This document shows, piece after piece, positions 17,781-57,689 of a DNA stretch of 64,000 nt. The stretch comes from Gemmataceae bacterium (lineage in GTDB: Bacteria; Planctomycetota; Planctomycetia; Gemmatales; Gemmataceae): NCBI GenBank assembly GCA_009691845.1, contig SIAJ01000013.1, positions 13,749 through 77,748 on the forward strand, given 5' to 3'. Under the pieces are notes generated by a model. The model saw only the letters and a list, made by a program, of their open reading frames with translations, was not told the origin of the DNA and did not search any database. The number at the start of each line of letters is the position of its first letter. Within the stretch, counting starts at the first letter, position 1. Both the position numbers and the translations under genes were made by a program.

Positions 17781-18503
17781 CTACGCGATCGACTCCGCGG
17801 GTCTGCATCCCAACAGCCAAATCTCGCCGAACTCCTCCGGTTGATCGAGATCAACTTCCAGCAGCTTGATGAGTTCCAAGATGGCCAGGAAGATGCCGAT
17901 GAAACGGGCACGTGAGAAAGGTGGGGAGAACAGGCCGCGAAAGGGGACTCGGCCCCGATCGCGAACAAAATCGCGGACGAAGTCCAGGTACGAAGATTGC
18001 GGCGTTTCGTCGGCCATCAAGTTGAGTGGCTGGAGCGACTGCGTCTCCCGGATCAAACGGCCAAACGCACTCACGAGGTCCCACAACTCCACGCGGCGAA
18101 ACCGGGGCGAGGTTGCGCCTTCCTCATCGTCGGGCAATATCCGTGGTACGTGGAACTGGCGTTCCTCGGCCAGTTGTTCGAGATGTCCCGCAGCCTCCTT
18201 GGTCTTGCGGTATTCGACGAGTTGCTTCACCAATTCGCGGCGTGGATCGTCTGGCTCTGGGCCGGTTGCCTTCTCGGTCTGGGGAAGCAGCAGGCGGCTT
18301 TTGATCTCCATCAGGGTTGCGGCCATGACGAGAAACTCGCCGGCCCATTCCACGTCGATCGTTTGGACGGCGAAGAGGTAGTCGAGAAACTGCTCGGCGA
18401 TCCGTGCAACCGGGATGTCGCGCACGTCCATCTCATTCCGCTTCACTAGGTAAAGAAGCAGATCGAGCGGACCCTGAAACGTATCGATAGCGACTTCGTG
18501 CAT
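17781..18503 (-). CDS. scpA: Segregation and condensation protein A (kleisin ScpA)
   Basis: MHEVAIDTFQGPLDLLLYLVKRNEMDVRDIPVARIAEQFLDYL is the classic ScpA N-terminus. 240 aa. Confidence 0.85.
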   Translation of the reverse strand: MHEVAIDTFQGPLDLLLYLVKRNEMDVRDIPVARIAEQFLDYLFAVQTIDVEWAGEFLVMAATLMEIKSRLLLPQTEKATGPEPDDPRRELVKQLVEYRKTKEAAGHLEQLAEERQFHVPRILPDDEEGATSPRFRRVELWDLVSAFGRLIRETQSLQPLNLMADETPQSSYLDFVRDFVRDRGRVPFRGLFSPPFSRARFIGIFLAILELIKLLEVDLDQPEEFGEIWLLGCRPAESIA

Positions 18504-18697
18504 CGTCCGTGAATGGAGGGAGGCTGAGCGGTCATATTCTTACGCCTGGTCTCCGTTGAGGGGAAGAGGCGTTCACTTGCGGACGCTTCGGCATCCTCGG
18601 GAGGAGCCCGAAGCGTTAGCGAGGGGTGCACTTCACACAGGTAAGAATCTAATCGGGAGTACGGATTGTTCGTTACCCCTTGTGAAGCACAACAAAC

Positions 18698-21600
18698 CTA
18701 GGAAAGGGGTAGCCAGTCCACGTCGCTCCTGGAGTGTGCGGACTGGGTGTGATCGCCGTGCTCTTCGCAGAGTTTGGTAAACGCATTCACGTTCTCGCGA
18801 CGGGACTCACGCCAAATCATGAAGTCTTCATCGCTGGGTGCCACGTGTATTTCCTCCCGACAGAATTTTCGCACCCTATCGACATGCGCTTCTGCTGAAG
18901 CAGGAACCCCGATTACTGTGAGTGTGGGCTTTCCTTGGCCGAGATCGCCGGGCGTAGCCCGATCGAGTAGGTCGGCAATTCGGTCCTTGCCTCCAGCGTC
19001 CGCCGTCTCTGCAAGTGCCTTGAGAATGGGCGAAGCGGTCGGTGCCGGCAGTCTAGTTTCCAGGAAGCGCGAGGCTTGCTCGGTAAGCAAGTGCAGAAAT
19101 GCCGCACCGAATTCCGTCGAGCGGTTACAGGCATTCGTGACCCCTCGACATTCGTGGCAGATTCGACCCTGGAGCTTTTTGTCGAATTCTCGGAGTTCAT
19201 CGGGTCGGATTGAATCAAGCAAAAGCATGGCCGATTCCCGAATCGAATTTGTACCATCCGGGAACACCGGGCGACTCAGGCCGTCGTCGATTTCGCTTGT
19301 CGTCCCGCCGACGTCCAACTGTTTCAGGAAGTTGACAAGTTGGCTCCGAATCGCCGTCACTTCGCGGACGAGTTCGGGCACGTTACCCACAATGATTCGA
19401 TACACGCCCGCACATGCTCCTAACACCTGACCTTGAAATCGGGCCAGGGCCCAGTGTTTCATTGCTCGCGAATTCGCGGCTGGCAACAGGGCTTTTTGAA
19501 TCGTCCGAGCAGAACTCTTCGAGGTCGAGGCTAGCAACTGTTGGTGGATTGGAGCGAAAAATCTGGCGGCATCGGCTTCCAGGTCGATTGCTGCTTGCTC
19601 AACTTTGGTAATGGCCCGGCACAACCTTTCTCGAAGGAGGCGGATCGCTTCTTCTGTACCGCCCACGCGCAATCCTGGCTGTTCGATGAGGGCCAAAATC
19701 GAAGTGGCTAGCCGTGAATCTGCCTGAGAAGCAAGCTCCTGGACTTTGGTCTGAAGAGCGGCGGGGATCGTAGGCAGGTGGTCGCGTTCGAAAGTACCAG
19801 GGCGTCCCAGCAAGACGACGAGTTTGCCAAAAGCCTGCGACGCCCGAACAAAGTCGCTCTCCTCGGCTTCATCGTCCATCAACGGTTCTAGGGCTTGATA
19901 AAGAGCCTCCTGAAGAGGTTGGCCAAGAGTTTTCTTGAGATGTTCATCGAACATGTTGCGGAGAAACTCTTGGCCCAGTTGGCGTTCTTGCCATAGAGAC
20001 GCGATCAATTCCCGGGGATACGAACCAGTTAACTCGCTGCCCTTTCCCATCCAGGCGGCAAGCGTTCGCTGGGCAAGCATTGTCGAGGCCGTTCGCAGAA
20101 TCGCTTTTCGTGGCCACTTCAGCCGTTGTGTACCAACCACGGTGAAGGGGAGATTACTTTGAGCAACCGTGGCTGTGGTCCGGCCAAGCGGTGTCAGCAG
20201 TTCCGTGAACATCACTTCCGCGGCCAGCGATTCGGAATGCTTGCTCTCCTGGCGGTCGCATGTCCCTGGGAGCGGAATCAGGGTCACGCGCCGAAAGGGG
20301 CGGTCCGGATCAGTAATTGTCCCTTCGCTGGTATCGAACGTGGCGGCGTAGCACGATTCGGCGTGGTAATAGTGATTGAGTTCCGCGAGTGCCGTGCGGA
20401 CATTGCCAATGTTGCGGCGATTGCTGGTTTGTGAAATCCCTGCCGGGACGCCGAGTAAAGCCGAGACTCGGATACTTGAACATCCCAGGTTCCTGAGTTC
20501 GCGGCGAATGAGATAGGTGCAATCCAAGAACATGCCGGAACCAGTGCCACCGTGCAGAGACGAGGCCACGACCACGCGTGGCAGGTTCGTCCACATTCGC
20601 TGGCCCGTGATTCGAATCGCTTCCAGGAGGCAAGTCGGATTCAACAGCGGTTCGAGGGCCTTGCGAATACGATGGCAAATCACGTGATAGTGGTCGCACA
20701 GGGCCAGGCGACCTAGGCAACGAATCCCTTCCGTACTCGGTGTCCGTGGGATCCGGAACAGGTCCTCTTGTTTCAGCCAGGCATCGACCGGAGCGATTCC
20801 TTCACGCGAAAGGTAATGCGTGGGTCGGCGCAAGGTGGTCAACAACACATCCTCGGAATCCAAGGCCGTAGTGGAAGAACCCGAGGTGGCCAATTGCATC
20901 GTGGTCGGATCCGTATCAATCTGGAGCCAGCGCAAGTGCGGCAGGGTCGGGCGGCCGAAGCGATCCGCGATCCATTGTCGGGTGGCACGCAGAAAAGCCA
21001 GTCCGGTTCCGCCCAGACCGACAACCAGAGTCGGAGCCAGCACTCCATCGTCGAGAATCTCTTCCGGTGCCCTCGCTCGCGAGGATGCGGCCGGGACTGT
21101 CGGGGCCTTTCTCGCCGTGGTGAGCGCAGTCGGCCGCCATACCGTTGATTTCGGCGTGATTAGCGCCGGCAGGGACTTCGGTCGAGGCAGTTGCGCCTGC
21201 TCTGGGGAGCTATCCGTTCGGGTGGCCATTCTGGAGTCAGGAGTTTCCGTATGGCCGGCCGGTTTCTTCTCTCGATTATCGCCCGGAATTTGCACCTCCC
21301 CGAGCAGGGCTTTCACGAACTCAGTACAACTCGAAAAGCGATCGTCGGGCTTTTTGGCCAGCGCTTTGAAGATGGCTTCCCGATCCGGAGACGGCAAACC
21401 GACGAGGTCGGGAACACCCGTGAGGTGCTGCATGATCAGCTGTCGCGTGTTGGATCCGTTGAACGGCCGCTTGCCGATCAGCATTTCCATGTAGACGATG
21501 GCCAGACTATACTGGTCGCTCTGGCGGCTCACCCACCCATTGAACGATTCGGGCGGGGCATACATCGGCGTGATGCCACCCGTTACGGCTGCACGTGCAC

Positions 21601-22111
21601 CATCGAGGTCCTTGGCGAGTCCAAAGTCCGCGACCTTGATATGGCGACCGACTAGAAACAGGTTCTGCGGCTTGATGTCGAGATGCTGAATCTAATGGTG
21701 AAGATTCATCAGATCGAGTGCCTCGGCCGCTTCCACCATGTACTGCAGAAGTTCGGCGCGAGGGATGCCCGGCAGGCCGGAATCGGCTGCCTCGGTGAAG
21801 CGATCGAACAGGTTTCTATCGGCCAACTCCATGACAATCAGGAGTTGGCCGTCGATGACTTCGATACGTTCGAGGGAGAGCAAAAACGGATGTCGAATCG
21901 TCTTGACGCGGTTGAGCGAGCGGAACTCTTGCTCGGCCCCTCTGTTATCACTGCCATCACTATCCTTGCCGCCGAAGACGAACTTGATGGCCTTGTGCAT
22001 CCCACCGGGGGCCTCGGCCTTCCAGACCTCGCCGTAGCCCCCTCGGCCAAGACGTCTGATGAGCCGGTAGCCTGGTATGGGCTCGGCATTCACTGCGGCG
22101 GGTTGTTGCAT
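18698..22111 (-). pseudogene. Ser/Thr protein kinase fused to a tubulin/FtsZ-like GTPase domain and a long helical C-terminal region; single in-frame TAG at 21692-21694
   Basis: ORFs 21692..22123 and 18698..21565 share a frame. Reading through gives ..LDLMNLHH*IQHLDIKPQNLFLVGRHIKVADFGLAKDLDGARAAVTGGITPMYAPPESF.. Kinase motifs: LGRGGYGEVW, AIKF, HLDIKPQN, DFG, APE. Downstream: VVGLGGTGLAF and SSLHGGTGSGMF (tubulin signature-like, PF13809-type). The likely start is the ATG at 22111 (MQQPAAV). Confidence 0.75.
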
Positions 22112-22204
22112 GGAGGTGAGCAACGTTTACGAAACTCGTTAGGCAAGAGTAAGGGCAATTTGGCGATGACGGAATATAGTTCATTCAGGATGGAAACCAG
22201 CGTT

Positions 22205-22256
22205 GACATGCCCAGTTTTCGTGGGGCACGGACATGCCCAGTTTTCATGGGGCACG
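22205..22256. promoter_or_regulatory. Tandem 26-bp direct repeat (2 copies, 1 mismatch), each unit an imperfect palindrome, in the divergent kinase/ASCH intergenic region
   Basis: gacatgcccagttttcGtggggcacg | gacatgcccagttttcAtggggcacg. Each unit contains TGCCCA-N7-TGGGGCA. TTGACA at 22203-22208 overlaps the first unit. Confidence 0.6.
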
Positions 22257-22289
22257 AGAATTGTGCCTGGCTCTCACAAGGAGTCTAGA

Positions 22290-22706
22290 TTGCTGAAACA
22301 AACGAATTACGCGCTCTCGATCAAGCAGCCTTGGGCAGCCCTCGTGGTCGCGGGGATCAAAACGATCGAGATTCGCACATGGGCGACGTCGATTCGCGGC
22401 CGAATTTTCGTCCATGCTGCCAGCATCCCCGATAAGCGGCCCGAAGGCTGGGCCGCAATTCCGGAACACTTAAGGACACTCGCCGAAACGGTGGGCGGAG
22501 TGATCGGAGCCGTCGATTTGCTCTCGTGCATCGGCTATCGCACTGCCGCGAAATTCAAGCTGGACGCGAATAAACACCTGAACGACCCGTCGTGGTTCGA
22601 AGGCCCGCAGATGTACGGGTTTCAGTTCGGTTCGCCCGCAGTCTTGCCGTTCCTCCGTTACAAAGGAAATGTGCGATTTTTTAAGGTCGAAGAATTAGGC
22701 GAGTGA
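22290..22706 (+). CDS. ASCH domain protein
   Basis: ALSIKQPWAALVVAGIKTIEIRTW..RGRIFVHA is the ASCH (ASC-1 homology, PUA-like) signature. I prefer the in-frame TTG at 22290 because AAGGAG lies 6 nt upstream. The ORF-track start at 22203 falls inside the tandem repeat. Confidence 0.7.
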   Translation: MLKQTNYALSIKQPWAALVVAGIKTIEIRTWATSIRGRIFVHAASIPDKRPEGWAAIPEHLRTLAETVGGVIGAVDLLSCIGYRTAAKFKLDANKHLNDPSWFEGPQMYGFQFGSPAVLPFLRYKGNVRFFKVEELGE

Positions 22707-22822: not shown

Positions 22823-24109
22823 CTACTCCTTCGCGGACGCTTCAGGCTTCGAAACCAATCCTGCCACAACCGCCTGCAAGAACGCCGCCGCCGGTGCCCC
22901 GTCAACTGCACGATGGTCGAAGGTCAAACTCAACGTAACAATTTCCCGGATGGCGACTTGTCCCTCGAAAACCGCTGGCTGCTTCGCAATGCGGCCGATG
23001 CCGAGGATCGCAATCTCCGGCCAGTTGATGATCGGGGTGAACGCATCGATCCCGAATCGGCCGAGGTTCGTGATGGTGAACGAGCCACCTTGCATTGCAC
23101 TCGCGGACAGCTGCCGTAAACGTGCCTTTTCAGCTATTTCCTTGGTTCGTCGCTCAAGTTCTACAAGAGACAAAGCGGAAACGTCGCGAATTACGGGCAC
23201 CATCAGTCCCGCCGGGGTATCCACCGCGACGCCAATATCAATCTGTGATGCAATCTCCAGTCGTTCGCCGACCCAGCGCGCGTTGAGAGCGGGATGCTTC
23301 TGAAGTGTCTCTGCCGTGATTCGGATGATGAAGTCCGTGAAGGTCGGCACCACGCCAGATGTGCCCTTGCGCTGCTCACGCCACTTCACCAACTCCGTTA
23401 CATCGGCCGTAGTTGTCAGCGTCACGGGAACGGTTGACTTCACGCTGTGGAGCAGATGAGCCGCGATGGCTTGCCGAGTCGATGACAGAGCTTTGCCGGC
23501 CCCGAGCGCAAGCACATCCCGTTCGCGAATGCGGCCATTGCGGCCCGTGCCGTCGATTCGCGACAGGTCCACGCCTCTCTCGCGTGCAACTCGCCGCGCT
23601 CGTGGCGAACTTGCTCGGGAGACAGGCCGAGTTTCGATGGCACGCAAATCTCCCGCATCAATTCGGCCGCCAATGCCGCTGCCAGCGATCTTGGCGAGAT
23701 CAACGGACAGCGCGCGCGCCAAACGCCGCACGGCCGGGCTGGCCGCGGGCAAGGCTCCCCCCTCTCCACTTCGGAGAAGAGGGCCAGGGAGGAGAGGTTT
23801 GGGTTGGGGATCATTGACCGGCTGAGACTTCCTCTCAGGCCCAGTCTCGGCACGTGGAGTGGAAGAAGAGACCTCCAAAAATGCAACGGTGGCACCCACG
23901 GCCACCGTGTCTCCCTCTTTCGGTCCATCGGCCGGAATGCGCAAGATGCCCGCGTCGATGGCTTCGACTTCCTGAACTGCTTTATCGCCTTCGAGTTTGA
24001 ACAGGGCATCGCCCGGTTGAATCGTGGTGCCATCCTGCTTGAGCCAACCCAGGAACACGCCCGACTCCATGTTCCAGCCGAAACGAGGGACGAGGATTTC
24101 TATGGGCAT
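22823..24109 (-). CDS. Dihydrolipoamide acyltransferase (E2) of a 2-oxoacid dehydrogenase complex
   Basis: Lipoyl domain ..FKLEGDKAVQEVEA.., two E3/E1-binding (PSBD-like) segments (PAVRRLARALSVDLAKIAGSG.., PRARRVARERGVDLSRIDGTG..), and catalytic SLTFDHRAVDGAPAAAFL. ATG at 24109 (MPIEILVP). Confidence 0.85.
   Translation of the reverse strand: MPIEILVPRFGWNMESGVFLGWLKQDGTTIQPGDALFKLEGDKAVQEVEAIDAGILRIPADGPKEGDTVAVGATVAFLEVSSSTPRAETGPERKSQPVNDPQPKPLLPGPLLRSGEGGALPAASPAVRRLARALSVDLAKIAGSGIGGRIDAGDLRAIETRPVSRASSPRARRVARERGVDLSRIDGTGRNGRIRERDVLALGAGKALSSTRQAIAAHLLHSVKSTVPVTLTTTADVTELVKWREQRKGTSGVVPTFTDFIIRITAETLQKHPALNARWVGERLEIASQIDIGVAVDTPAGLMVPVIRDVSALSLVELERRTKEIAEKARLRQLSASAMQGGSFTITNLGRFGIDAFTPIINWPEIAILGIGRIAKQPAVFEGQVAIREIVTLSLTFDHRAVDGAPAAAFLQAVVAGLVSKPEASAKE
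23755..23797. repeat. Family-B REP-like palindrome embedded in frame in the E2 inter-domain linker
   Basis: ctcccccctctccacttcggagaagagggccagggaggagagg. The first 13 nt are identical to the intergenic copy at 60115. It is translated on the minus strand as ..PKPLLPGPLLRSGEGGA.. Confidence 0.5.
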
Positions 24110-24133
24110 GACAAATTCTCTTCGCGTCAAGAT

Positions 24134-24171
24134 AGTAGTCCGCACACTCCGTGTGCGGAAAGACTGCACAC
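24134..24171. repeat. REP-like hairpin, family A, in the E1-E2 intergenic spacer
   Basis: agtagTCCGCACAC-tcc-GTGTGCGGAaagactgcacac, a perfect 9-bp stem at 24139-24159 followed by a partial third half-site. Confidence 0.65.
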
Positions 24172-24225
24172 AATCGAATTCGGCGCGGTTCGTGCGGGCA
24201 GTCGGCACACGGGGTGAGCCGACGA

Positions 24226-26187
24226 CTATTCCGCCAACAAATCGCGGATGGCTTTTTGAATATCCTCCGCGCTCGGCACGACGGCTTTTTCCAAAGTTGG
24301 GCTATAAGGCGTTGGCGTGTGGATGCCGTTGAGCCGGCGAATCGGTGCATCGAGATCGTCGAAGCCGCGATCCGCGACCTGGGCCGCGATCTCCGCTCCG
24401 ACGCCGAACGGGCCGAAGGTCTCATCGACTACCAGCAGCCGGCTCGTTTTTCGAACCGACTTCAGAATCGTTTCCACATCGAGCGGGGCGACCGTGCGTG
24501 GGTCGATGAGTTCGACGGAGATGCCTTCTCCGGCCAGCGTTTCACACACGGCCCGGACGCGATGAACCATTGCGCACAAAGCCACCACGGTCAGATCTCG
24601 GCCTTCGCGAACAACCGCAGCCTGGCCAAACGGAATCTCGTAGGCCTCGGTCGGAACCGGGCCCTTCACGCTTAGCACATCGCGGTGTTCCAGGAACACC
24701 ACCGGATCATGGCAGCGCAGTGCATGCGTTAGCAAGCCTTTCGCGTCGTAAGGATTCGACGGCACCACGACACGCAACCCAGGCACCTGAGCGAAGAGCG
24801 GATAGTAATTCCCCGAATGGTGCGTGGCGGCTGAGTGACCGACCCCGATGCATCCACGCAGAAGGATCGGCATCTTCAACCGTCCGCTCGACATGTACTG
24901 CATCTTGGCGATCTGGTTGATGATCTCGCCGAGCCCATCGAGCACGAAGTCCGCGAACATGAAATCGACAATGGGCCGCGACCCGGTCATCGCTGCCCCG
25001 CCCGCCAGGCCGACGAAGCCGCGTTCAGCGATTGGGGTATCGCACAGCCGTTGCGGCCCGTACTTTTCGTAAAGCCCCGCCGTCGTCTTGAAGTTGCCCC
25101 CGCGTTTGCCAATGCCTTCGCCGAGCACGAAGATCGAGTCATCGCTGGCCATGGCATCGCTCAGTGCTTCCAGCGTGGCAGCCATGAACGTGATTTCACG
25201 GTTGCCGGGTTGAGGCGCCGCTCTCGGAGTTCGCGGTTCGGCATAGATGAACGAATTGGCCGACGCCGGCTCTGGCCAGGCGGCTTGCTCGGCCGCTTGC
25301 GTGGCCTCGGCGACCTCAGTTTCGATTGCCTTCTCAATCTCGGTGACACTTATCCCGCTGGAAACCATCCGGGAGCGGAGACGCTCGATCGGGCAGAGTT
25401 TCTTCCACTCGTCGACCTCCTCACGAGTGCGGTAGCCAAAATCTCCCATGCCCTCGGCATGAGCGCGGGTTCGATACGTGCGACATTCGAGCAGCGTCGG
25501 CCCGTTGCCGGCTCGGGCCCGCTCGACCGCCTGGCCTGCGACATGCGAAACGCTTAGCACGTCATTGCCGTCCACGAGTACGCCCGGAATGCCGTAAGCG
25601 GCCCCGCGGCTGGCTACCTCGGGATTGCCCGCCGCATAGGCGAAAGGCACCTCGGTCGCGTATTGATTGTTTTCGCACACGAACAGCACGGGCAGTTTCC
25701 AGATCGAGGCCAGGTTCAGGCCTTCGTGAAAGGCACCGTTATTCACGGCCCCATCGCCGAAGAACGCGACTGCGACCCGATCGCTTTTCAAGATGCGAAA
25801 GCTATAGCCCGCCCCCGCCGCCTGTAAAATGCACGGTCCAACAATGCCGCTGGTCCCCATCATGCCGGTTTCCGGCGCGAACAAGTGCATGCTGCCGCCC
25901 CGGCCACGCGAGCAACCGGCTTCCCGCCCGAACAACTCGGCAATCAACTGGAAGGTCGAAACACCCTTGGCCAACGCGTGCCCGTGGCCCCGGTGCGTGC
26001 TGAAGACCACGTCCTCTTTACGCAGATGGGAGCAGACACCGACCGCAATCGCTTCCTGTCCAACGTAAGTGTGACAGGCACCGTGAATCAAGCCACGCTG
26101 ATGGCACTTCGCCAGTTGCTCTTCGCACTTGCGAATGCGGAGCATCGATTGGAAGAGGTTGGCCGCGTTACTGGGGAGAGCTATCAC
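24226..26187 (-). CDS. Fused E1 alpha + E1 beta subunit of a thiamine-diphosphate-dependent 2-oxoacid dehydrogenase
   Basis: Alpha part: LFQSMLRIRKCEEQ, CHTYVGQEA, GRGGSMHLF, GDGAVNNG. Beta part: ITFMAATLEAL.., DTPIAERGFVGLAGGAAMTGSRPIV. The ORF track begins at the ATG at 26274, but residues 3-25 are a translated REP element. I prefer the GTG at 26187. The start is uncertain. Confidence 0.85.
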   Translation of the reverse strand: MIALPSNAANLFQSMLRIRKCEEQLAKCHQRGLIHGACHTYVGQEAIAVGVCSHLRKEDVVFSTHRGHGHALAKGVSTFQLIAELFGREAGCSRGRGGSMHLFAPETGMMGTSGIVGPCILQAAGAGYSFRILKSDRVAVAFFGDGAVNNGAFHEGLNLASIWKLPVLFVCENNQYATEVPFAYAAGNPEVASRGAAYGIPGVLVDGNDVLSVSHVAGQAVERARAGNGPTLLECRTYRTRAHAEGMGDFGYRTREEVDEWKKLCPIERLRSRMVSSGISVTEIEKAIETEVAEATQAAEQAAWPEPASANSFIYAEPRTPRAAPQPGNREITFMAATLEALSDAMASDDSIFVLGEGIGKRGGNFKTTAGLYEKYGPQRLCDTPIAERGFVGLAGGAAMTGSRPIVDFMFADFVLDGLGEIINQIAKMQYMSSGRLKMPILLRGCIGVGHSAATHHSGNYYPLFAQVPGLRVVVPSNPYDAKGLLTHALRCHDPVVFLEHRDVLSVKGPVPTEAYEIPFGQAAVVREGRDLTVVALCAMVHRVRAVCETLAGEGISVELIDPRTVAPLDVETILKSVRKTSRLLVVDETFGPFGVGAEIAAQVADRGFDDLDAPIRRLNGIHTPTPYSPTLEKAVVPSAEDIQKAIRDLLAE

Positions 26188-26207
26188 GTGGGTGCCTTTG
26201 ATTCCAA

Positions 26208-26261
26208 AGTAGTCTGCACACGGAGCGTGCAGACCGTCCGCAGACTCCGTGTGCGGACTAC
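26208..26261. repeat. Double family-A REP element (two inverted 17-nt units, two hairpins)
   Basis: aGTAGTCtGCACACGGAG...CTCCGTGTGCGGACTAC. The inner hairpins are gtctgcac/gtgcagac (26212-26234) and gtccgca/tgcggac (26236-26258). Confidence 0.65.
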
Positions 26262-26278
26262 GATGAGGCGGCATTGGC

Positions 26279-27478
26279 CTACCGACCCGAATACACTCGC
26301 TTCTTCACATCCTCCGGCAGACGGTCAGGATATGGCAACGCCTGCAAGAAATGAACCACGTCCCAGGTTTGCGACTCGCTGAGCGCTATCGCGGCCGGCA
26401 TGTTCGATGGGCCGATCCCGCCATGAATTCGGCGATAGAGTTGCTCGGGGGCCGTGCCTCCCTTTCGTCTCGCATCGGTCAAATCGCCTGGCTTGATCAG
26501 CGTGCCCCAGACGTCGTATTGCAGCTTGGTATCGCGGCCATAGTTCATGTGGCAGGTCACGCAGGCGGCCCCTTTTTGATCGAGAAACAGAGTGTGGCCA
26601 CGCACAATTGATTCGGCCACCGCGGGAGAATTCTCCGCGAAGGTCGGCTTGATTGCCGGCATCACGTCGTTGTTCGCCTTCTGCCATGCCCGGAGTTCAT
26701 TGCGTGTGATCTCCTTCGCATCCGAAGCCAGATCGGCATTCAATCCCGGTTCGCCATGGACCAAAAGCGTGCGAAGAATCTCAAACTCCGTTCGGCCACG
26801 GACGCTGAGATAGATCACATAGTCGATTAACCGCTGACGTTCCTCTTCGCTACGCAACTTGAACCTGGGCATTTGCGTGCCGGGAAGCCCGTTGGTCAGC
26901 GTGAAGAACAGGTCGTCCCGGGTTGGCTTTCGCGGTCCGGTGGCGTTCGTGGAAACGAACTTGAAAGCTCCCTGGCGGAAGTCGCGGGGATGAGGCGTGA
27001 TCCACGGGGCGGTCTGTCCGCGGCCATTGCCGTTTACGCCGTGACACTGCTGACAGTGCTTGCGAAACAGCTTGCTTCCGGTCGCGAGGTGTTCTGGCGA
27101 GAGACCGAGTTCATTGGCGAGAATTTTAGATTCGTGGTCATCGGCGAATTCAGGCTCGGCGGGCGTGCCGAAGGATTTTCGCAGATGCCCGTTCAATTGG
27201 TCATGCAGCGATTCAGGCACGTCTTCCGGGTTGCGAACCTTGCCGCCGCGTTCGTTGATGCGCTGGATCGCTTCATCCAGTTCGCCCGCAGCTTCCGGTT
27301 GATTCGGGACGTTCTTGGGTAATTCGAGAACGATCCAATCTTGACGCGGTGGGTAAACGAAGGAATTGGGATAGGCGTCCGGATCGCTATTGCAGCCGCC
27401 ACAACCGGCACAGGCAAAAAGCAAGAAGGCCAGCAAAGCTGGCCGTCGCACACTGCCCGTTCGTGATCGGGCCGCCAT
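26279..27478 (-). CDS. Dihaem c-type cytochrome lipoprotein
   Basis: Lipobox LLFACAGCGGC and two CxxCH sites (CQQCH, CVTCH). The ATG overlaps the coxIV stop (TGATG). It is the last gene of the oxidase operon. Confidence 0.75.
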   Translation of the reverse strand: MAARSRTGSVRRPALLAFLLFACAGCGGCNSDPDAYPNSFVYPPRQDWIVLELPKNVPNQPEAAGELDEAIQRINERGGKVRNPEDVPESLHDQLNGHLRKSFGTPAEPEFADDHESKILANELGLSPEHLATGSKLFRKHCQQCHGVNGNGRGQTAPWITPHPRDFRQGAFKFVSTNATGPRKPTRDDLFFTLTNGLPGTQMPRFKLRSEEERQRLIDYVIYLSVRGRTEFEILRTLLVHGEPGLNADLASDAKEITRNELRAWQKANNDVMPAIKPTFAENSPAVAESIVRGHTLFLDQKGAACVTCHMNYGRDTKLQYDVWGTLIKPGDLTDARRKGGTAPEQLYRRIHGGIGPSNMPAAIALSESQTWDVVHFLQALPYPDRLPEDVKKRVYSGR

Positions 27479-27810
27479 CACAACCCTCCGAGGAATCTCG
27501 TGAGATAGTCGCTCAGGGGCATGGCGAAGAGGATCAGCATGATGAAGAGCGCGGAACCTGCTGTTAGCCAGGTCAGCGAGTCGGCCTTGTTCAAATGCAT
27601 CCAGTAATAACCGACCAGCCCGACCTGTACGGCGGAAATGAGCATGTGCACGATGAGCGCGCTATCACCAATGTGGGACAACGAGACACCGATGGTGGCA
27701 ATCACGCCAACAAAAATCGCGACCCAGACGGCAATGATCGCACCCGGGTTATCCACGCTAGCGGCGGGATTATCGAGTTTCTGGTGCTTGTGGTCGAAAT
27801 AGAAAGCCAT
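27478..27810 (-). CDS. Cytochrome c oxidase subunit IV (prokaryotic CoxD-type small membrane subunit)
   Basis: Start trimmed to MAFYFDHKHQKL. Three TM helices and the position immediately after ctaE fit PF03626-type subunit IV. Confidence 0.6.
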   Translation of the reverse strand: MAFYFDHKHQKLDNPAASVDNPGAIIAVWVAIFVGVIATIGVSLSHIGDSALIVHMLISAVQVGLVGYYWMHLNKADSLTWLTAGSALFIMLILFAMPLSDYLTRFLGGL

Positions 27811-27869
27811 CTCAAACCTCTCTAGTTTCAAGTTTCGAGCTTCGTTGAAACTCGAAACTTGTAACACGG

Positions 27870-28598
27870 TCAAAAATGCAACCCGTGATGCGGCCCGGCC
27901 AGGTACAGAAGCGGCATCAGGAACAGCCAGATCGCATCCACCAAGTGCCAGTAAAGGCTCGTCACCTCAACGCCAACATATCGGTCAGCCGTGATCCAGC
28001 CCATATAGGCCCGATACCACAAGTAAAAGATGGCCCCGATACCGATGATGATGTGCAACCCGTGGATGCCGGTCATGATGAAATAGAAAGTCATGAACAA
28101 GCGAATGCGTTGCGGGGCGATCCCTTTTTTCTCCCACTGATCGTTGAAAGTACTGAGGGCTTTCGAGTGGTCGTCGGGGTCGTGAACCAGTTCTTTGCCG
28201 AAGTTCTTGCAGAACGGCACCAGGCCTTCTTCGTAGTCTTGGTTGTACTCGTAGGCCTTGAAGCACATGAACCCAGCACCCAATATGCCGGTGATGGCCA
28301 GCAGATTCATGAGTGCTTTTCGATTCCCCAGTTGAGCGGCACGAATCGCGAACGTGATCGTTAAGCTGCTCGTGAGCAGCAAGACGGTGTTAATGCCCGC
28401 GACCAGGACGTTCAACTGACCGCTTGCAGCGGCCCATTCCTTCGGATACCAGATGCGGTAGACCGTGTAGGCCAAGAACACACCACCGAAGAACAGAACT
28501 TCCGTAGCGAGAAACATCCACATGCCGAGGCGTTCCGCCCCGCGCTGCTGCTCGATGTCTTCGAAGTGGTGCTTCAGCGCGCCTTCGTTAGCGGACAT
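27870..28598 (-). CDS. ctaE: Cytochrome c oxidase subunit III
   Basis: LKHHFEDIEQQRGAERLGMWMFLATEVLFFGGVF...SLYWHLVDAIWLFL are canonical subunit III motifs. Confidence 0.9.
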   Translation of the reverse strand: MSANEGALKHHFEDIEQQRGAERLGMWMFLATEVLFFGGVFLAYTVYRIWYPKEWAAASGQLNVLVAGINTVLLLTSSLTITFAIRAAQLGNRKALMNLLAITGILGAGFMCFKAYEYNQDYEEGLVPFCKNFGKELVHDPDDHSKALSTFNDQWEKKGIAPQRIRLFMTFYFIMTGIHGLHIIIGIGAIFYLWYRAYMGWITADRYVGVEVTSLYWHLVDAIWLFLMPLLYLAGPHHGLHF

Positions 28599-30273
28599 CG
28601 GCCTTCTCCCCGGTCTGAGTCATGTTCAGCGAATATTCGTAAGGCCCACAAACAACCTTTGGCGTCGCCTCGAAGTTGTGCGTGATCGGCGGGCTTTCCG
28701 CCACCCATTCCAGGCCGGTCGCGCCCCACGGATTCGGTCCGGCCTTCTTGCCCGTGAAGAACGAGGCAATCAAGTACGTGTGGATCAACAGGAACGCGGC
28801 TGCCTGGATCGAATATCCAGCAGTCGAGAGTACGTTCAGGTACTGAAACTCCGCCGGATAGTTCGGGTAACGTCGCGGCATGCCGTGATAGCCGAGCCAG
28901 AACTGCGGCGTGAACGTGGTCACGTAGCCGACGCAAATCATGATGGCGCCGATCCGGCTCCAGAAGTCGCTGTACATCACGCCGAACATTTTGGGCCACC
29001 AGTAGTGCAACGCACCCAGGTAGCCGAGCACCATGCCGCCGACCATCACGAAGTGGAAGTGGGCAACCACAAAGTAGGTATCGTGCAAGTGCAAGTCCGA
29101 GCCGAGCGTGGCCAGCGGAATACCTGTCAAGCCACCCACGGTGAACAGTACAAGAAAGCCAAGAGCGAAGATCATCGGTGCCTGGAAGCTAATCGCTCCC
29201 CGATACAGCGTCGCTGTCCAGTTAAAGATCTTGATGGCCGAGGGGACCGCGACGAACATGCTCAGCAGCGAGAACAACAACGCGGCATAGTAGCTGATGC
29301 CCGCCACGAACATATGGTGAGCCCAAACCAAGAAGCCGACGATGGCGATGCCAACGCTCGACCAGGCCACAGCGGTGTAGCCGAAGATGTTCTTTCGGCT
29401 GAAGCACGTGAGCAGTTCGCTCACCATGCCCATCGCGGGAAGAATCATGATGTACACGGCCGGGTGACTGTAGAACCAGAACAAATGCTGGAACAGCAAT
29501 GGGTCGCCATCGAGTGCCGGATCGAAGATACCGATCGGCATGCCGAGGGCGTTCGAGCCGGTCTCGACCATGAGTAAGGTCAGTGCGATGGCCAACACGG
29601 GCGTGGCGAGAAGCTGAATCAAGCTGGTCGCGTACATGGCCCAGCAGAAGAGCGGCAGGCGGCCCCAGGTCATGCCAGGAGCACGCATGCGGTGCATGGT
29701 TACAATGATGTTCAAGCCGGTCATGATGCCCGAGAAGCCGGTGATGAACACGCCGAACACGCCTGGCACAACATTCGAGTGGCTCGATCGACTGCTGTAG
29801 GGAGGATAGAGGGTCCATCCCGTATCGATGCCGCCGGTCAGCAAGGCGAAGACGGCGAATGAAGCGCCGACCATCCACACGTACCACGAAGCAATATTCA
29901 GCTTTGGGAAGGCCATGTCTTTCGCGCCGATCATGATTGGCACGAAGAAGTTCCCCATCACGCCGGGGATGGATGGAATGAGAAACAAGAAGAGCATCAC
30001 CACGCCGTGGGCGGTGAAGGTCTTGTTGTAGGTGTCGTTATCCATGATCAAGCCGGTGGGCGAGAGCAGGTTGGTGCGAACCAGACCAGCAAGAGCGCCG
30101 CCGACGCCGAAGAAGATCGTCAGCATGACCAGGTACATGATGCCGATGCGCTTGTGATCGACCGTGAACAGCCAGGACCAAATGCTCCAGCCATCTTTCA
30201 GGTAGCTGACATGTGCGGAGTGTGCCGGGTGTTCGTTGGAGGCATGGGCCTCATGTTTAGTAGCCGTACTCAT
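28588..30273 (-). CDS. ctaD: Cytochrome c oxidase subunit I (haem-copper oxidase catalytic subunit)
   Basis: 561 aa with ..WFYSHPAVYIMILPAMG.., ..WAHHMF.., ..HDTYFVVAHFH... The ATGA overlap with the ctaC stop fits translational coupling. Confidence 0.95.
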   Translation of the reverse strand: MSTATKHEAHASNEHPAHSAHVSYLKDGWSIWSWLFTVDHKRIGIMYLVMLTIFFGVGGALAGLVRTNLLSPTGLIMDNDTYNKTFTAHGVVMLFLFLIPSIPGVMGNFFVPIMIGAKDMAFPKLNIASWYVWMVGASFAVFALLTGGIDTGWTLYPPYSSRSSHSNVVPGVFGVFITGFSGIMTGLNIIVTMHRMRAPGMTWGRLPLFCWAMYATSLIQLLATPVLAIALTLLMVETGSNALGMPIGIFDPALDGDPLLFQHLFWFYSHPAVYIMILPAMGMVSELLTCFSRKNIFGYTAVAWSSVGIAIVGFLVWAHHMFVAGISYYAALLFSLLSMFVAVPSAIKIFNWTATLYRGAISFQAPMIFALGFLVLFTVGGLTGIPLATLGSDLHLHDTYFVVAHFHFVMVGGMVLGYLGALHYWWPKMFGVMYSDFWSRIGAIMICVGYVTTFTPQFWLGYHGMPRRYPNYPAEFQYLNVLSTAGYSIQAAAFLLIHTYLIASFFTGKKAGPNPWGATGLEWVAESPPITHNFEATPKVVCGPYEYSLNMTQTGEKADVR

Positions 30274-31394
30274 TTCGGACCTCCCTCGCCGGTCGGTGTC
30301 TTTGGTGCTGCCGGCGGCTCAGTCGTTCCGCCGACCGGGGCCACCCAATCTTCCGTGCGGACCGGCGTTTCACCCTTCTTCAGCGACTTGATATACGCGA
30401 TCACTTTGATGAGGTCCTCCTCGCTTACCTTGTCCGGGCCGAAGTGCGGCATGATTGGCTCCCAGCCATCGCGGACTTTGGCTCGTGGCCGGCGGATCGA
30501 CTCGCGGAGATAATTCTCGTCGGCGATGACCGTGCCTCCACCCTTGATCGGGCGGCGCGTGTTGTAAATTTCTTCGAGTATCGGCGCCTTCGACTTCTGG
30601 GTGTCGTGGCACTGGATACAGTTGAGCTTCTGGAACAGTTGCCGGCCCTGATGGGCGAGCGAACCATCGACCGAGTTTTTGCCCGGCCCGGTCTTCCATT
30701 TGCCCTCAAGCCACTCTTCGTATTCCTTCTGCTCGACGACCATCACCTTGCCAACCATCAGCGAGTGATTGGTGCCGCAGTACTGATCGCAGAAGATGTC
30801 GTAGGTTCCAGTTTTCGTCGGATGATACCACGTACTCACATAACGGCCCGGTACGGCATCGATCTTCTGGCGGAAAGCCGGGATGCCAAAATTGTGAATC
30901 ACGTCTTCCGATGTCAGGACGATTTTGACGGGCCGATTCACCGGAAGGACCATGATGCCTTCGAAGTAACCCTCGCCGCCAATTTCCTTCGCGTAATCGA
31001 GGCTATTTTGCCCGATGATCACGCGTTGACCGCCCGGATATTGCACCTTCCACATCCATTGTTTGCCGACGACGTAGATTTCCGGTGCGTCGGCCGGCGG
31101 ATGCAGGGCCACGTTGTAAATCTGCGCTCCCCAGCCGAAGAAGGCGAGGAAGATGATGAGCGGAATAATCGTCCAGGCGAGTTCCAGTTTGTGCGACCCG
31201 AGGATGCGCGGCGTGGGTGCGTAGCCGAGTTCGCCAGGATTCTTGCGCCGATACATGATGCAGAACAGGCCAATGACCGCGTAGACAGCCAATCCGGTCG
31301 CTCCGGTTACCGCGGAGATCGCCCAGATGATGTTGTCCACGTGCCAGGCCAGCTCACTGGCTTGTTCGGGGAAGAATCGCGTTTGCAGAATCAT
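30270..31394 (-). CDS. ctaC: Cytochrome c oxidase subunit II with fused C-terminal cytochrome c domain (caa3 type)
   Basis: CuA site FCDQYCGTNHSLM. C-terminal haem c site LNCIQCH. Start trimmed to the ATG at 31394 (MILQTRFFPEQAS); the longer ORF starts at a TTG. Confidence 0.9.
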   Translation of the reverse strand: MILQTRFFPEQASELAWHVDNIIWAISAVTGATGLAVYAVIGLFCIMYRRKNPGELGYAPTPRILGSHKLELAWTIIPLIIFLAFFGWGAQIYNVALHPPADAPEIYVVGKQWMWKVQYPGGQRVIIGQNSLDYAKEIGGEGYFEGIMVLPVNRPVKIVLTSEDVIHNFGIPAFRQKIDAVPGRYVSTWYHPTKTGTYDIFCDQYCGTNHSLMVGKVMVVEQKEYEEWLEGKWKTGPGKNSVDGSLAHQGRQLFQKLNCIQCHDTQKSKAPILEEIYNTRRPIKGGGTVIADENYLRESIRRPRAKVRDGWEPIMPHFGPDKVSEEDLIKVIAYIKSLKKGETPVRTEDWVAPVGGTTEPPAAPKTPTGEGGPK

Positions 31395-31487
31395 AAGCGT
31401 CGATCCATTGGAGCATCCGGCCTTTGTGGGGGACGGGCCTCCCGGCCTGTCCGAAAACCCGGCAGACCTGGAGGTCTGCCGCCACAA

Positions 31488-37359: not shown

Positions 37360-40300
37360 CTATGCCCCCTTCGGCTTCGGCATGTCGGGGTTCGGGTTGC
37401 GGACGGCTGCCAGGTAGCTCGTTCGCGGCATCGTATTCAATTCGGCCAGCAACCCATAGTTCGTCGGCTGTTGCTTCCAGGTATTCACTTTGGCCTTCGC
37501 ATCGTTCAGATCGCCGAAGATGATCGCACCGGCCGGGCAAGCTTGCTGGCAGGCCGTCACGATTTCCCCGTCCTTGATCTCGCGTCCCGTTCGCTCGGAT
37601 TCGATTCCCGCTGAGCGAATTCGCTGGACGCAGTAGGTACACTTTTCCATCACGCCACGCTCGCGGACCGTGACTTCCGGGTTCCGCATGAGCTTGTACG
37701 TGTCGGTCTTCCAGTCCGCAAAGGTCAGGAAGTTGAAGCGGCGAACTTTATAAGGGCAGTTGTTCGAGCAGTAGCGAGTGCCGACGCAGCGGTTGTAAAC
37801 CATGTCGTTCAGGCCGTCGGCACTATGCACGGTCGCGGCCACGGGGCACACAACTTCGCACGGAGCCTTCTCGCACTGCTGACACGGCACCGGCTGGAAG
37901 TGCGTGGTCAGATTGTCGGGATCGTCGGCCTTGCCTTCGTAGTAACGATCGACGCGAATCCAGTGCATCTCACGACCGCGCGTCACTTCTTTCTTGCCGA
38001 CGACCGGGATGTTGTTCTCCGCCATACAAGCGGTGACGCAGGCGCTACAGCCATTGCAGGCCGTGAGGTCGATGGCCATCGCCCAACGGTGGCCTTCTTT
38101 GTTCGTCGCCGGGGCCATGGTCAACGGAATCAACCGCGGATCGTCGTGGCCGTGATCTTCTTCCTTCTTGTCATCCTTGGTGTGTTCATGCTTGTGCTCT
38201 TTGGCTTTCTCGCCCTTCCACTCGTTGGGCGAGCCAGGCACGTTTTCGTCGATCGAACGCCATTCGGGCGAGGCAACCGGCGGCACTTTCGCGAACAGTG
38301 CGACCTTGCCGTGCGTCCGCTTGTTCTCCTTCAGGTTCTCTTCGTATTCGTGCAGCGTTCCCTGGCGAACCGGCCGGCGGCCTTCCATGCGGAAGTGAGC
38401 CTGCGTGCTGGCCAGCAGATACGTTTCGCCAGTGCCAGCGATCTTCACGCCGAGCGCGTTCCACGCGGCCCCGCTTGTTCGCACAGCATACGCGTTGAAG
38501 CCAGTGCCCTTGGCGACCTTGCCACCCTTTTGGCGACCGTAGCCGAGGTGCAAGGTGATCGAATCATCTGCGTGACCAGGCTGAATCCAGACGGCCGCTT
38601 TCAGCTTCTTGTCGCCAACCGTGATCTCGGCCATGTCGGCAACGGACCGACCGTGCTCGCCGCCACCCGTCGATTCGATGTTGATCTTGAAGCCATGCTT
38701 TTCGGCCGTCTTTGGGCTGACGATGAGGGCATTATCCCAGGTCAGCTTGGTGATCGGCTTTGGCAATTCCTGCAACCAGCCGTTATTCAGATAGCGGCCG
38801 TCGTGAATCGCAGGATCGGGCCGGAGCGTGAGTTCCAGGCCGGCAACCGGGGCAGTGTAAGCCGGGATGTTCGCGGCATTCGGCTGCTTATCTACGCGAG
38901 CGCTGGCCGAGTTCGGAATGATGCCTTCCTGCAACGCGTGCTGCCAGGCGGCATCGAAGTCCACCTTGCTGCCGCTCGCCGGCCAGTTTTTCTTCCAGTA
39001 GCCCTTCACGATCTCACGCGGATTCAACTCGGTGCGATCGCCGACCAGGTAGGCCAACAATTCCAGTGGCGATCGACCGTTGAACAGCGGAGCAATCAGT
39101 GGTTGGCACAGCGTCACCGTGCCATCGTGAGCCCGGCCATCGCCCCAGGTCTCCAGGAAGTGAGTCTGGTTGATATGCCAATCGCATTCAGCGGCAGTCT
39201 CGTCGCTGTGCGAGCCCATGTGAACCGTCAGGCTGACTCGTTCCAGGGCCTTCTTGAAGTCCACGTCGGCTGGCGAGGTGAAGACCGGATTTACGCCAAT
39301 GATGAGCAATGCACCCACGGTTCCGGCGGACATTTCGGCCACGAGTTCCTTGAACTCGGCTGCCTGGGTCGTCGGCTTGATTTCGATGGGCGCGTGATTC
39401 AGGACCGTCGTGCCGATGTTGCCGAGTGCCCCGTTCATCGCGTGAGCCAGTGCGTGAACGGCAGGCGGCTGATTCTCGCCGGCGATCACGATGCTCTTGC
39501 CCTTGTGGGCATTCAGGTCATTGACAAGTTCTTTGATCCAATTTTTTGCGGCCTCTGAGATCGCCACTTCTTGGACAGCGGCACCGACTCCCTTGGCGAT
39601 GTTGCGAGCGATGGCTTCCACGTCCGCCGAACGCACAGCGAGACGATGATCCGCGACTCCGCCAGTTGATGTCAGCATCGACTCGATGACGTAAAGCCGA
39701 TTCATCTCCTCGGCCGAGGGAACTTTGCCGCCCTCTTTGAGATGGCTGTTACGTAGACGGTTGAAATCCTTCGTGTAGCGAACGGCACCGGGGCCGTTGC
39801 TCAAGAAATCGGCATCGAGCGAAAGAACGCGAAGAGCTTTGGTGAAATCGTAGACGGTGTTGACGGGCTCGCCGTATGCGAGCTTGGCACCTTCGCGGAC
39901 ATTGTCGCGATTGGCCGGTTCGTATTGAACCCACTTCGCCGATGGATAGAGCTTGAGGAATTCATCCTGAATCATCGAGCCAAGTGCCGGCGAACCAACC
40001 GTGTCCGTCAAAATGCGAATGGCTCGCGGGGGATTCTCGGTTCGCAATCGCTCAAGAGCAGTCCGCAGTTCGAGGACCGCCGTATCCCAGCCGGTATCAA
40101 CACCCTTCTTGGTGATCCGCCGCGAGCGGTCTGGATCGTACATATCCAGAAGCGATGCTTGAGCGATCGCGTCGATCGAGCCGAGACTGGTCGGGTGCGA
40201 AGGGTTCCCCTCGAGTTTGATCGGCCGGCCTTCCCGGCTCTTGGCGAGCAAACCAATCGTAATTCCGCCTTGCGTGAACCCCGTGGCATAGAAGAGCGGG

Positions 40301-40578
40301 ATGCCGAGCGTCATCTGTTCGGGTTGGCGAACGTACGGAAAAATCTTTTCGCGGGAAGCAGGACGAGGCGAGCAGCCAATACCAGCCAGGGCGACCGAGG
40401 CACCGGCCAGGGTCAGGAACGTTCGACGAGAGACGGGATCATTCCAGGCAGTTGCGTCTTCCGGGAACTCCCGATGGAGCATGTCCTGGAATTCCGGACT
40501 CTTCGCCAATTCCTCGAGGCCGACCCACTGCTCGTGGTCGACCACGGGGGCCAGCGGTTCTTCGGTTGTCCGGGTCAT
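37360..40578 (-). CDS. actB: Alternative Complex III subunit ActB (molybdopterin-oxidoreductase-like domain fused to a 4Fe-4S ferredoxin domain)
   Basis: 1072 aa. Tat signal SRRTFLTLAGASVALAG. C-terminal FeS clusters CNGCSACVTAC, CQQCEKAPCEVVCP, CVGTRYCSNNCP, CTYC...CQQACP. Confidence 0.9.
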   Translation of the reverse strand: MTRTTEEPLAPVVDHEQWVGLEELAKSPEFQDMLHREFPEDATAWNDPVSRRTFLTLAGASVALAGIGCSPRPASREKIFPYVRQPEQMTLGIPLFYATGFTQGGITIGLLAKSREGRPIKLEGNPSHPTSLGSIDAIAQASLLDMYDPDRSRRITKKGVDTGWDTAVLELRTALERLRTENPPRAIRILTDTVGSPALGSMIQDEFLKLYPSAKWVQYEPANRDNVREGAKLAYGEPVNTVYDFTKALRVLSLDADFLSNGPGAVRYTKDFNRLRNSHLKEGGKVPSAEEMNRLYVIESMLTSTGGVADHRLAVRSADVEAIARNIAKGVGAAVQEVAISEAAKNWIKELVNDLNAHKGKSIVIAGENQPPAVHALAHAMNGALGNIGTTVLNHAPIEIKPTTQAAEFKELVAEMSAGTVGALLIIGVNPVFTSPADVDFKKALERVSLTVHMGSHSDETAAECDWHINQTHFLETWGDGRAHDGTVTLCQPLIAPLFNGRSPLELLAYLVGDRTELNPREIVKGYWKKNWPASGSKVDFDAAWQHALQEGIIPNSASARVDKQPNAANIPAYTAPVAGLELTLRPDPAIHDGRYLNNGWLQELPKPITKLTWDNALIVSPKTAEKHGFKINIESTGGGEHGRSVADMAEITVGDKKLKAAVWIQPGHADDSITLHLGYGRQKGGKVAKGTGFNAYAVRTSGAAWNALGVKIAGTGETYLLASTQAHFRMEGRRPVRQGTLHEYEENLKENKRTHGKVALFAKVPPVASPEWRSIDENVPGSPNEWKGEKAKEHKHEHTKDDKKEEDHGHDDPRLIPLTMAPATNKEGHRWAMAIDLTACNGCSACVTACMAENNIPVVGKKEVTRGREMHWIRVDRYYEGKADDPDNLTTHFQPVPCQQCEKAPCEVVCPVAATVHSADGLNDMVYNRCVGTRYCSNNCPYKVRRFNFLTFADWKTDTYKLMRNPEVTVRERGVMEKCTYCVQRIRSAGIESERTGREIKDGEIVTACQQACPAGAIIFGDLNDAKAKVNTWKQQPTNYGLLAELNTMPRTSYLAAVRNPNPDMPKPKGA

Positions 40579-40687
40579 TAAATCCCCTCAGTCATTTCTC
40601 ACGACCGATGTTCCCATACGTCCAAAGTAGCCGGCACATTCCGAGTGCCGACCTACCGCACAAGAAGTGCGGGCTACTGTCAGCACC

Positions 40688-57629: not shown

Positions 57630-57651
57630 GGGGAAGTCCTTTCGATTCTTG

Positions 57652-57676
57652 CTCCCCTCTCCGTTTCGGGGGGGAG
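57652..57676. repeat. Family-B REP-like palindrome (degenerate) between the two propeller genes
   Basis: ctcccctctcc-gtttc-gggggggag. Confidence 0.5.
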
Positions 57677-57689
57677 AAAAGCAACGCCG

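Follow-up and report, generated by a model that had tools for sequence, protein, structure and literature searches.

The window analysed here is a stretch of 64,000 nucleotides (64 kb) from a Gemmataceae bacterium (assembly GCA_009691845.1, contig SIAJ01000013.1, positions 13,749 to 77,748 of the forward strand), and the gene under study lies at 18698–22111 on its minus strand. This gene, an interrupted member of the planctomycetal protein-kinase/FtsZl1 family referred to hereafter as the 'A' paralogue, comprises 1137 codons and a terminal TAG (18698–18700). It is flanked by a divergent gene for an ASCH-domain protein (22290–22706, plus strand) and by scpA, the gene for the SMC kleisin (17781–18503, minus strand). 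Translation of the minus strand from 22111 to 18698 gave a single frame whose sole internal stop is a TAG at 21692–21694 (codon 140). The stop falls between helix αE and the catalytic loop of a Hanks-type kinase (PF00069), so that the kinase coding sequence is not continuous through both lobes.

Structure of the interrupted gene

A preliminary description of the window, made from its letters alone, had reported one in-frame TAG just before the catalytic loop, with the same frame continuing beyond it. Translation confirmed this, and all of the motifs quoted there (LGRGGYGEVW, AIKF, IQHLDIKPQNLF, VADFGLAK, MYAPPE, VVGLGGTGLAF and SSLHGGTGSGMF) are present in the read-through frame. Codons 1–139 (21695–22111) encode the kinase N-lobe and helix αE up to the stop, including LGRGGYG, Lys43 in AIKF and the Glu in AEQEF; they are annotated in ENA as a separate Pkinase fragment of 139 amino acids (aa). 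Codons 141–270 (21302–21691) encode the catalytic loop HLDIKPQN, DFG, APPE and the C-lobe, in which the family-invariant residues are all kept. The Pfam Pkinase profile matched residues 15–270 of the read-through protein (E = 3.2e-31, 109 bits), and the set of catalytic motifs is complete: LGRGGYG, AIK43F, AEQE, H143-L-D145-IKPQN150, D162FG and APPE188. The presence of HLD instead of HRD places the protein among the non-RD kinases.

The first possible restart after the stop is the ATG of Met183 (21563–21565), which opens the 955-aa open reading frame (ORF) reported by gene callers. There is no earlier start codon in the 955-codon remainder, and no clear Shine–Dalgarno sequence lies upstream of Met183. 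As a point of annotation, the two called ORFs, a 139-aa 'kinase' and a 955-aa 'tubulin-like' one, belong to a single disrupted gene, a member of a known family. On the opposite strand a 201-aa ORF overlaps the kinase N-lobe in antisense (21683–22288, plus strand), and some public annotations call a 197-aa gene there instead of the 139-aa fragment. This ORF had no Pfam match and is probably spurious.

The in-frame TAG is a real allele

The preliminary description had proposed that an alignment of orthologues be used to see which residue stands in place of the stop. The stop aligned with a conserved Gln (HHQIQHLD) in 14 of 14 aligned orthologues, with CAG or CAA as the orthologue codon. The closest orthologue, the A copy of locus L083, has CAT CAG ATC against CAT TAG ATT in the window, the stop codon being one C-to-T transition away from CAG. 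No stop was present at this position in 105 aligned homologues or in 87 copies of the motif at related loci.

The TAG recurs in independent assemblies. The exact 955-aa downstream ORF was found on eight public contigs. The Logan assembly of run SRR12053441 differed from the window by one mismatch in 14,731 bp and that of SRR12053440 by none in 8,439 bp; both carry the TAG, and both carry a 26-bp duplication described below. The gene calls of the ENA assembly are the same pair of 139 aa and 955 aa. In the protein database there was no intact copy more than 69% identical. We conclude that the TAG is a real allele of the source organism and the consensus base in independent assemblies. A one-off base-call error is disfavoured, since the same TAG appears in independent assemblies of two sequencing runs. 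The accession numbers of these runs are adjacent and their assemblies differ hardly at all from the window, so that a single population appears to be represented.

A generally error-ridden assembly was also considered and rejected. No other stop splits a domain in the 64-kb window, and the kinase/FtsZl1 gene is its only ORF interrupted mid-domain. The other long same-frame ORF pairs (SCO1/COX2, an ABC-2 permease with an M28 peptidase, and two PQQ beta-propeller proteins, plus a nitroreductase) proved to be separate complete genes. TAG terminates 23 of the 83 long ORFs in the window, including the kinase/FtsZl1 gene itself and scpA, and the window contains no tRNA gene. Recoding of TAG, or a pyrrolysine-type reading of it, was rejected on these grounds.

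Substitution pattern in the rest of the gene

Among 77 columns conserved at 90% or more, the window protein departs from the family at seven, as compared with a family median of two and with two to three departures in its closest relatives. Three of the seven deviations, L504Q, G505R and R507W, form a cluster (20591–20602, minus strand) directly before strand S4 and loop T4, at sites that are 92–100% conserved in the 105 homologues. The 504–507 cluster arose by point substitutions, and a compensated frameshift was rejected as its source. A relative-rate test counted 54–57 unique changes in the window protein as compared with 33–42 in each of three sister proteins (p = 0.02–0.13). This substitution pattern is consistent with recent inactivation and would imply mildly relaxed constraint at most.

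The FtsZ-like domain and its predicted fold

The kinase is followed by a linker rich in Pro, Ser and Thr (residues 272–355; 21047–21298, minus strand), in which these residues make up 34.5% of the total as compared with 19% in the whole protein. The linker contains the sequence K-S-L-P-A-L-I-T-P (residues 312–320; 21152–21178). Its general form, K-[S/T]-x-P-A-L-x-T-P, is kept in nearly all of 15 aligned proteins inside an otherwise variable linker, and is a candidate autophosphorylation or docking site.

The FtsZl1 GTPase domain (residues 362–682; 20066–21028, minus strand) matched the Tubulin_2 family PF13809 over profile positions 1–353 of 356 (Pfam, E = 2.2e-33, 116.5 bits against a cut-off of 27). 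It includes an IDTD motif and Asn570. The signature loops are VVGLGGTG (residues 365–370) and HGGTGSG (residues 520–526), with the T1 loop GLGGTG at 21002–21019 and the T4 loop GGTGSG at 20534–20551. Gly367, Gly521, Gly522 and Gly526 are invariant in the 15-sequence alignment, and the T4 glycines are invariant over 106 sequences. In the read-through protein there was no Pfam match at E ≤ 0.01 to PF00091 (FtsZ/tubulin), FtsZ_C or Tubulin_C. NCBIfam returned kinase models only, far below their cut-offs, and a sequence-profile search of the PDB was swamped by kinase matches and uninformative for the FtsZ-like part. The profile searches suggested in the preliminary description thus gave significant matches to both PF13809 and Pkinase and none to PF00091.

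An AlphaFold2 model of residues 340–1137, built on 106 sequences, had a predicted local distance difference test score (pLDDT) of 92.3 and a predicted template-modelling score (pTM) of 0.84. Foldseek compared this model with the PDB and found CetZ2 to be the best match (4b45, 3e-6), followed by CetZ1, dozens of FtsZ structures and tubulin; there were 107 matches at E ≤ 1e-3, with a probability of 1.0 for those listed. The top matches in a viral library were phage FtsZ and tubulin. Template-modelling scores (TM-scores) reached only about 0.5 of the target length, which roughly corresponds in size to the GTPase half, and the mapping onto these structures was made without residue-level alignments and is tentative. 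Beyond the equivalent of strand S6 the model consists of helices and one more strand, and no T7-type loop is recognizable in it. The modelling shows a predicted FtsZ/tubulin-like fold for the central domain, in place of the missing fold that the preliminary description had named as grounds for abandoning its reading. The order it had given, of kinase, Pro/Ser/Thr-rich linker, tubulin/FtsZ-like PF13809 domain and helical tail, is likewise supported by Pfam and by AlphaFold/Foldseek.

The C-terminal region (residues 683–1137; 18701–20065, minus strand) is predicted to form long antiparallel coiled-coil-like helices and then a small α/β end domain. The final ∼450 residues are mostly helical in the prediction, with helices of 30–59 residues. 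Modelled separately (pLDDT 88.6), the C-terminal 447 residues again gave a small α/β domain after a set of very long antiparallel helices; they had no fold match in the PDB (best E = 0.43) and no Pfam match.

Distribution of the family and comparison with known systems

With the read-through protein as query, more than 120 full-length homologues were retrieved, which are 1110–1284 aa long and have the same architecture of Pkinase and Tubulin_2. The best of them (P0001–P0003) are 68–69% identical, and those from Zavarzinella, Tuwongella, Frigoriglobus and other Gemmataceae are named 'tubulin-like doman-containing protein' by NCBI. A scan of one genome per species, in which the best match was 40% identical, gave at least 582 loci. 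All those on reliably classified contigs belong to Gemmataceae/Gemmatales, and genomes carry several paralogues; among the best 80 loci there are often two or more per genome. When residues 340–1137 were searched without the kinase against 1.8 billion representative proteins, 2416 clusters were found at E ≤ 1e-3 and 306 at E ≤ 1e-30. The best 150 were mostly proteins of 1100–1250 aa in which the match begins near residue 350, i.e. the kinase is present. The preliminary description had allowed that the two halves might normally be separate genes; kinase and FtsZ-like halves are one gene in every orthologue. The window copy is collinear with its more than 120 homologues, but a single polypeptide would need read-through past the TAG at codon 140.

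The preliminary description had also regarded the fusion of a kinase with a tubulin-like GTPase as unusual. This view did not hold: the architecture is not new, the protein-kinase-fused branch of FtsZl1 in planctomycetes having been known since 2010, and it is common in Gemmataceae, the at least 582 loci being those of Gemmatales. The FtsZl1 family was defined as combining an FtsZ-like domain with a coiled-coil and a C-terminal domain of helices, to which the members from Planctomycetes add a protein kinase at the N-terminus (Makarova and Koonin, 2010; PMC2875224). The original description found the elements past helix H5 unalignable, which agrees with the helical model obtained here (PMC2875224). 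The FtsZ-like family was later equated with Tubulin_2 PF13809 and the point about the planctomycete kinase repeated (Santana-Molina et al., 2023; PMC9871819), and tubulin-like domains were reported as the commonest partner domain of cytoplasmic Ser/Thr kinases in Planctomycetota (Odelgard et al., 2024; PMC11032199). FtsZ is absent from all planctomycetes (PMC12673574), and kinase/FtsZl1 proteins go unmentioned in a 2025 review in which the loss of ftsZ throughout the planctomycetes is emphasized. No experimental study of these proteins was found in the literature searched. Gemmataceae, which lack FtsZ, keep several copies of an experimentally uncharacterized, kinase-tethered protein predicted to be an FtsZ-like GTPase.

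The window gene shares with the planctomycetal FtsZl1 subgroup its taxon, the order of kinase, FtsZ-like GTPase domain with GGTGSG, extended coiled-coil and helical C-terminal domain, and the lack of an FtsZ_C or Tubulin_C domain; it differs in being interrupted by a nonsense codon. With FtsZ, CetZ and tubulin (PF00091) it shares the predicted nucleotide-binding fold, with a Foldseek probability of 1.0, a T1-like GLGGTG loop and a T4 GGTGSG loop. It differs from them in having no PF00091 match, a TM-score of about 0.5 of the target, no recognizable T7 loop and no C-terminal activation domain, and in carrying large inserts, a ∼450-aa coiled-coil tail and a fused kinase.

Mycobacterial Ser/Thr kinases of the PknA/PknB type, which are among the closest solved kinase structures by sequence, phosphorylate FtsZ in trans (alluded to in PMC2875224). 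In both cases a Hanks-type kinase is functionally coupled to a protein of the FtsZ superfamily. The family described here, in contrast, has kinase and FtsZ-like parts in one polypeptide, is non-RD (HLD) and has no transmembrane segment or PASTA domain. BtubA and BtubB of Prosthecobacter (mentioned in PMC3349469), also of the PVC superphylum, are bona fide tubulins encoded by tandem genes, with no kinase and no coiled-coil. Many Gemmataceae likewise have two ancient paralogues head-to-tail at one locus, whereas the window has the A copy only, and an A/B heterodimer is hypothetical.

Neighbouring genes: ASCH, paralogue B and scpA

Locus-level comparisons were made with the best 80 of the at least 582 loci, all from Gemmataceae/Gemmatales. 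The ASCH gene of the window encodes 138 aa (Pfam E = 7.8e-8), and its likeliest start is a TTG at 22290 after AAGGAG. In 29 of the 80 loci an ASCH gene lies within 500 bp of its kinase/FtsZl1 partner; L083 and L085 show the pairing too, which brings it to at least 31 related loci. The two genes are divergent, with ∼130–470 bp between them, and are paired in several clades of the family (loci L002–L056, L076, L083 and L085), which suggests co-regulation or a functional link. The synteny of ASCH, A, B and scpA, including the ASCH pairing, was not found in the literature that could be searched. Neither the FtsZl1 part nor ASCH had a PADLOC match, and an assignment to anti-phage defence was rejected.

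Two kinase/FtsZl1 genes stand head-to-tail in L003, L004, L007, L009, L013, L014, L015, L020, L033, L034, L045, L083 and L085. In L003, L004, L022, L083 and L085 the second gene, B, lies between A and scpA or directly after A. A neighbour-joining tree placed most ASCH-adjacent A copies and most downstream B copies in separate clades, and the A/B duplication is therefore old; the pair of L003 and the A copy of L045 fell outside these clades. The window protein is sister to the A copy of L083. An ORF of 3478 aa in L020 (70% GC) is an artefact; the real genes there lie in a different frame, where A (1210 aa) directly adjoins B (1213 aa). In L085 (ENA ERZ25039463, contig_110127, 210 kb), A, B and the adjacent 4HFCP_synth gene are each called as several pieces, a fragmentation that resembles the indel errors of long-read assembly. 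Database members of the family that are 'kinase-less' or fragmentary are often artefacts.

In the window, scpA is immediately downstream of the kinase/FtsZl1 gene after a spacer of 194 bp. It follows the kinase/FtsZl1 gene or genes in L003, L004, L016, L022, L024, L038, L047 and L085, which belong to different genera, and does not do so in many other loci. The fullest arrangement, a divergent ASCH gene followed by A, B and scpA, was found in L003, L004 and L085; the window has ASCH, A with its TAG, and scpA. There is no remnant of B in the spacer (18504–18697), and no second paralogue was found in the window, the 1075-aa ORF at 37360–40587 being a molybdopterin/Fe-S oxidoreductase.

FtsZl1 operons elsewhere have a vWA partner and often a protein kinase, P-loop GTPase or OmpA-like partner. 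The window has its kinase in cis instead, and among the genes called within ∼10 kb there was none for a vWA, OmpA-like or P-loop GTPase protein. The Pfam families within that distance are ASCH, SMC_ScpA, 2-oxoacid dehydrogenase E1/E2, COX, DUF4058, rhodanese/PseudoU_synth, DEAD helicase and SpoIIE. The conserved neighbours of the window gene and its relatives, unlike those of FtsZl1 operons elsewhere, are ASCH, scpA and, in the relatives, the tandem paralogue.

The divergent intergenic region

The kinase/FtsZl1 and ASCH genes are separated by 178 bp. The preliminary description had noted both a divergent ASCH gene and a 26-bp tandem duplication in the region it shares with the kinase gene, and both are real. 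The two copies of the duplication (22205–22230 and 22231–22256) are identical at 25 of 26 positions. The orthologous locus L083 (∼1811–1910) has a single copy, CACGAAAACTGGCA, embedded in the palindrome TTTTCGTGCAGCACGAAAA; this comparison indicates a duplication specific to the window lineage. Within each 26-bp unit of the window the sequence TGCCCCA...TGGGCA forms an imperfect inverted repeat, a possible regulator binding site that would here be doubled.

A candidate promoter element of the kinase gene, GGTTTCCA...GAATGAACTATATTC, lies at 22172–22200 on the minus strand. A standard sigma-70 scan did not flag it. Related promoter-like elements occur at the same place in L004, L007, L008, L009, L015, L020, L030, L040, L045 and other loci. 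In loci of the Fimbriiglobus/Gemmata type the element takes the form TTTTGCCAAAC, 12–13 bp, GAGCTAAAGAGT, where the window and L083 have GAATGAACTATATTC.

Discussion

We consider the ASCH-adjacent A paralogue of the window to be probably a pseudogene of recent origin or, at most, a strongly hypomorphic gene, bearing a recent nonsense allele at Gln140, and we give this reading a probability of roughly 0.6. The preliminary description had left three explanations of the stop side by side: a very recent nonsense mutation, a base-call error and read-through. The first is favoured; the assemblies of two runs speak against the second, and the ordinary use of TAG as a terminator, with no stop at this position in any orthologue, makes a programmed form of the third unlikely. 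In the course of events that we propose, a CAG-to-TAG substitution at Gln140 would have interrupted the A copy just before the catalytic loop. Translation would normally stop after the 139-residue N-lobe fragment, and full-length protein would be made only by rare near-cognate read-through. Such read-through at UAG tends to insert Gln, which would here restore the wild-type residue. Alternatively, a weak restart at Met183 may give a kinase-dead protein of 955 aa. It is because the main product would be truncated to the N-lobe, because read-through would be rare and because the restart at Met183 has no evident ribosome-binding site that a young pseudogene or hypomorph is preferred.

Several observations weigh against a young pseudogene. 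The nonsense codon is a single lesion in 3.4 kb, with no frameshift, and all family-invariant residues of both kinase and GTPase are kept. The acceleration is weak and its p-values are borderline; the gene could therefore still be under selection, via read-through or a restart at Met183. The assemblies with the same TAG establish it as genuine in one population but do not establish its fixation in the species. The missing B copy fits decay and is suggestive, but intact single-copy loci lie next to scpA in other genera (L016, L038 and L047), so that the absence of B is not in itself a sign of decay.

The same weakness of the decay signals would suit a functional fission of the gene, into a 139-aa N-lobe fragment and a working, kinase-dead protein of FtsZl1 type that starts at Met183. 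The 955-codon ORF is intact and has lost neither the GTP-binding loops T1 and T4 nor any family invariant, and FtsZl1 proteins outside Planctomycetes normally have no kinase (PMC2875224). However, Met183 lies inside the kinase C-lobe, so that the product would carry ∼90 residues of orphan C-lobe, and no Shine–Dalgarno-like sequence precedes it. The extra changes at conserved sites fall in the Tubulin_2 and C-terminal parts and not in the kinase, the opposite of what would be expected if the kinase alone had been abandoned. Both of the apparently kinase-less close relatives that were looked up are artefacts, P0143 starting 37 bp from a contig end and P0121 lying in an assembly in which its neighbouring genes are also fragmented. 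Taking both sides together, we regard a fission as unlikely.

Two further explanations would leave the gene functional, and we consider each of them highly improbable. If the TAG were an artefact of sequencing or assembly, the true base would be C (CAG) and the gene intact; the one-base difference from a conserved codon and the perfect preservation of the remainder are what such an error would leave. Against this, the same TAG is found in the assemblies of two separate runs and, as judged by the 139-aa and 955-aa gene calls, in the ENA assembly; the eight contigs in the database are accompanied by no intact near-identical protein, and a split within a domain is found in no further gene of the window. 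Programmed read-through, or recoding of TAG by a suppressor tRNA or an alternative code, would make the full-length kinase/FtsZl1 protein the normal product. It would account for the preservation of all motifs downstream of the stop, and the replaced residue is the one usually inserted, since near-cognate and supE-type suppression of UAG typically inserts Gln. Yet this same gene is among the 23 of 83 long ORFs that end in TAG, the window is without a tRNA, and a conserved recoding site would be expected in orthologues too, whereas none of the aligned homologues or related-locus motif copies has a stop there.

As for the intact relatives, we infer that they may be cytoplasmic, GTP-regulated, self-assembling scaffolds. 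GTP-dependent self-association of the FtsZ-like and coiled-coil parts would concentrate the tethered non-RD kinase domains, which, once gathered, could phosphorylate each other in trans, the LPALxTP linker motif, or partner proteins. A more speculative proposal, which we think doubtful, is that the arrangement of divergent ASCH, A, B and scpA in FtsZ-less Gemmataceae may encode a kinase-regulated cytoskeleton of two paralogues, similar to α/β-tubulin or to BtubA/B, which the window lineage would be dismantling. If so, such a two-paralogue FtsZ-like system could serve budding division or chromosome segregation and, with B absent and A bearing a nonsense codon in the window, would be dispensable or redundant in at least one organism. 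The naturally disrupted copy suggests that loss of the A paralogue is not lethal. The synteny itself provides genetic work in tractable relatives, Gemmata or Tuwongella for example, with concrete hypotheses and targets.

Other genes in the window

Upstream of the ASCH gene, at 22823–31487 on the minus strand, lie a pair of genes for 2-oxoacid dehydrogenase E1/E2 and a cytochrome c oxidase cluster (SCO1, COX2, COX1 and COX3). The adjacent same-frame paralogues encoding PQQ/BamB-like beta-propeller proteins lie at 56328–59006 on the minus strand. All of these are ordinary housekeeping genes.

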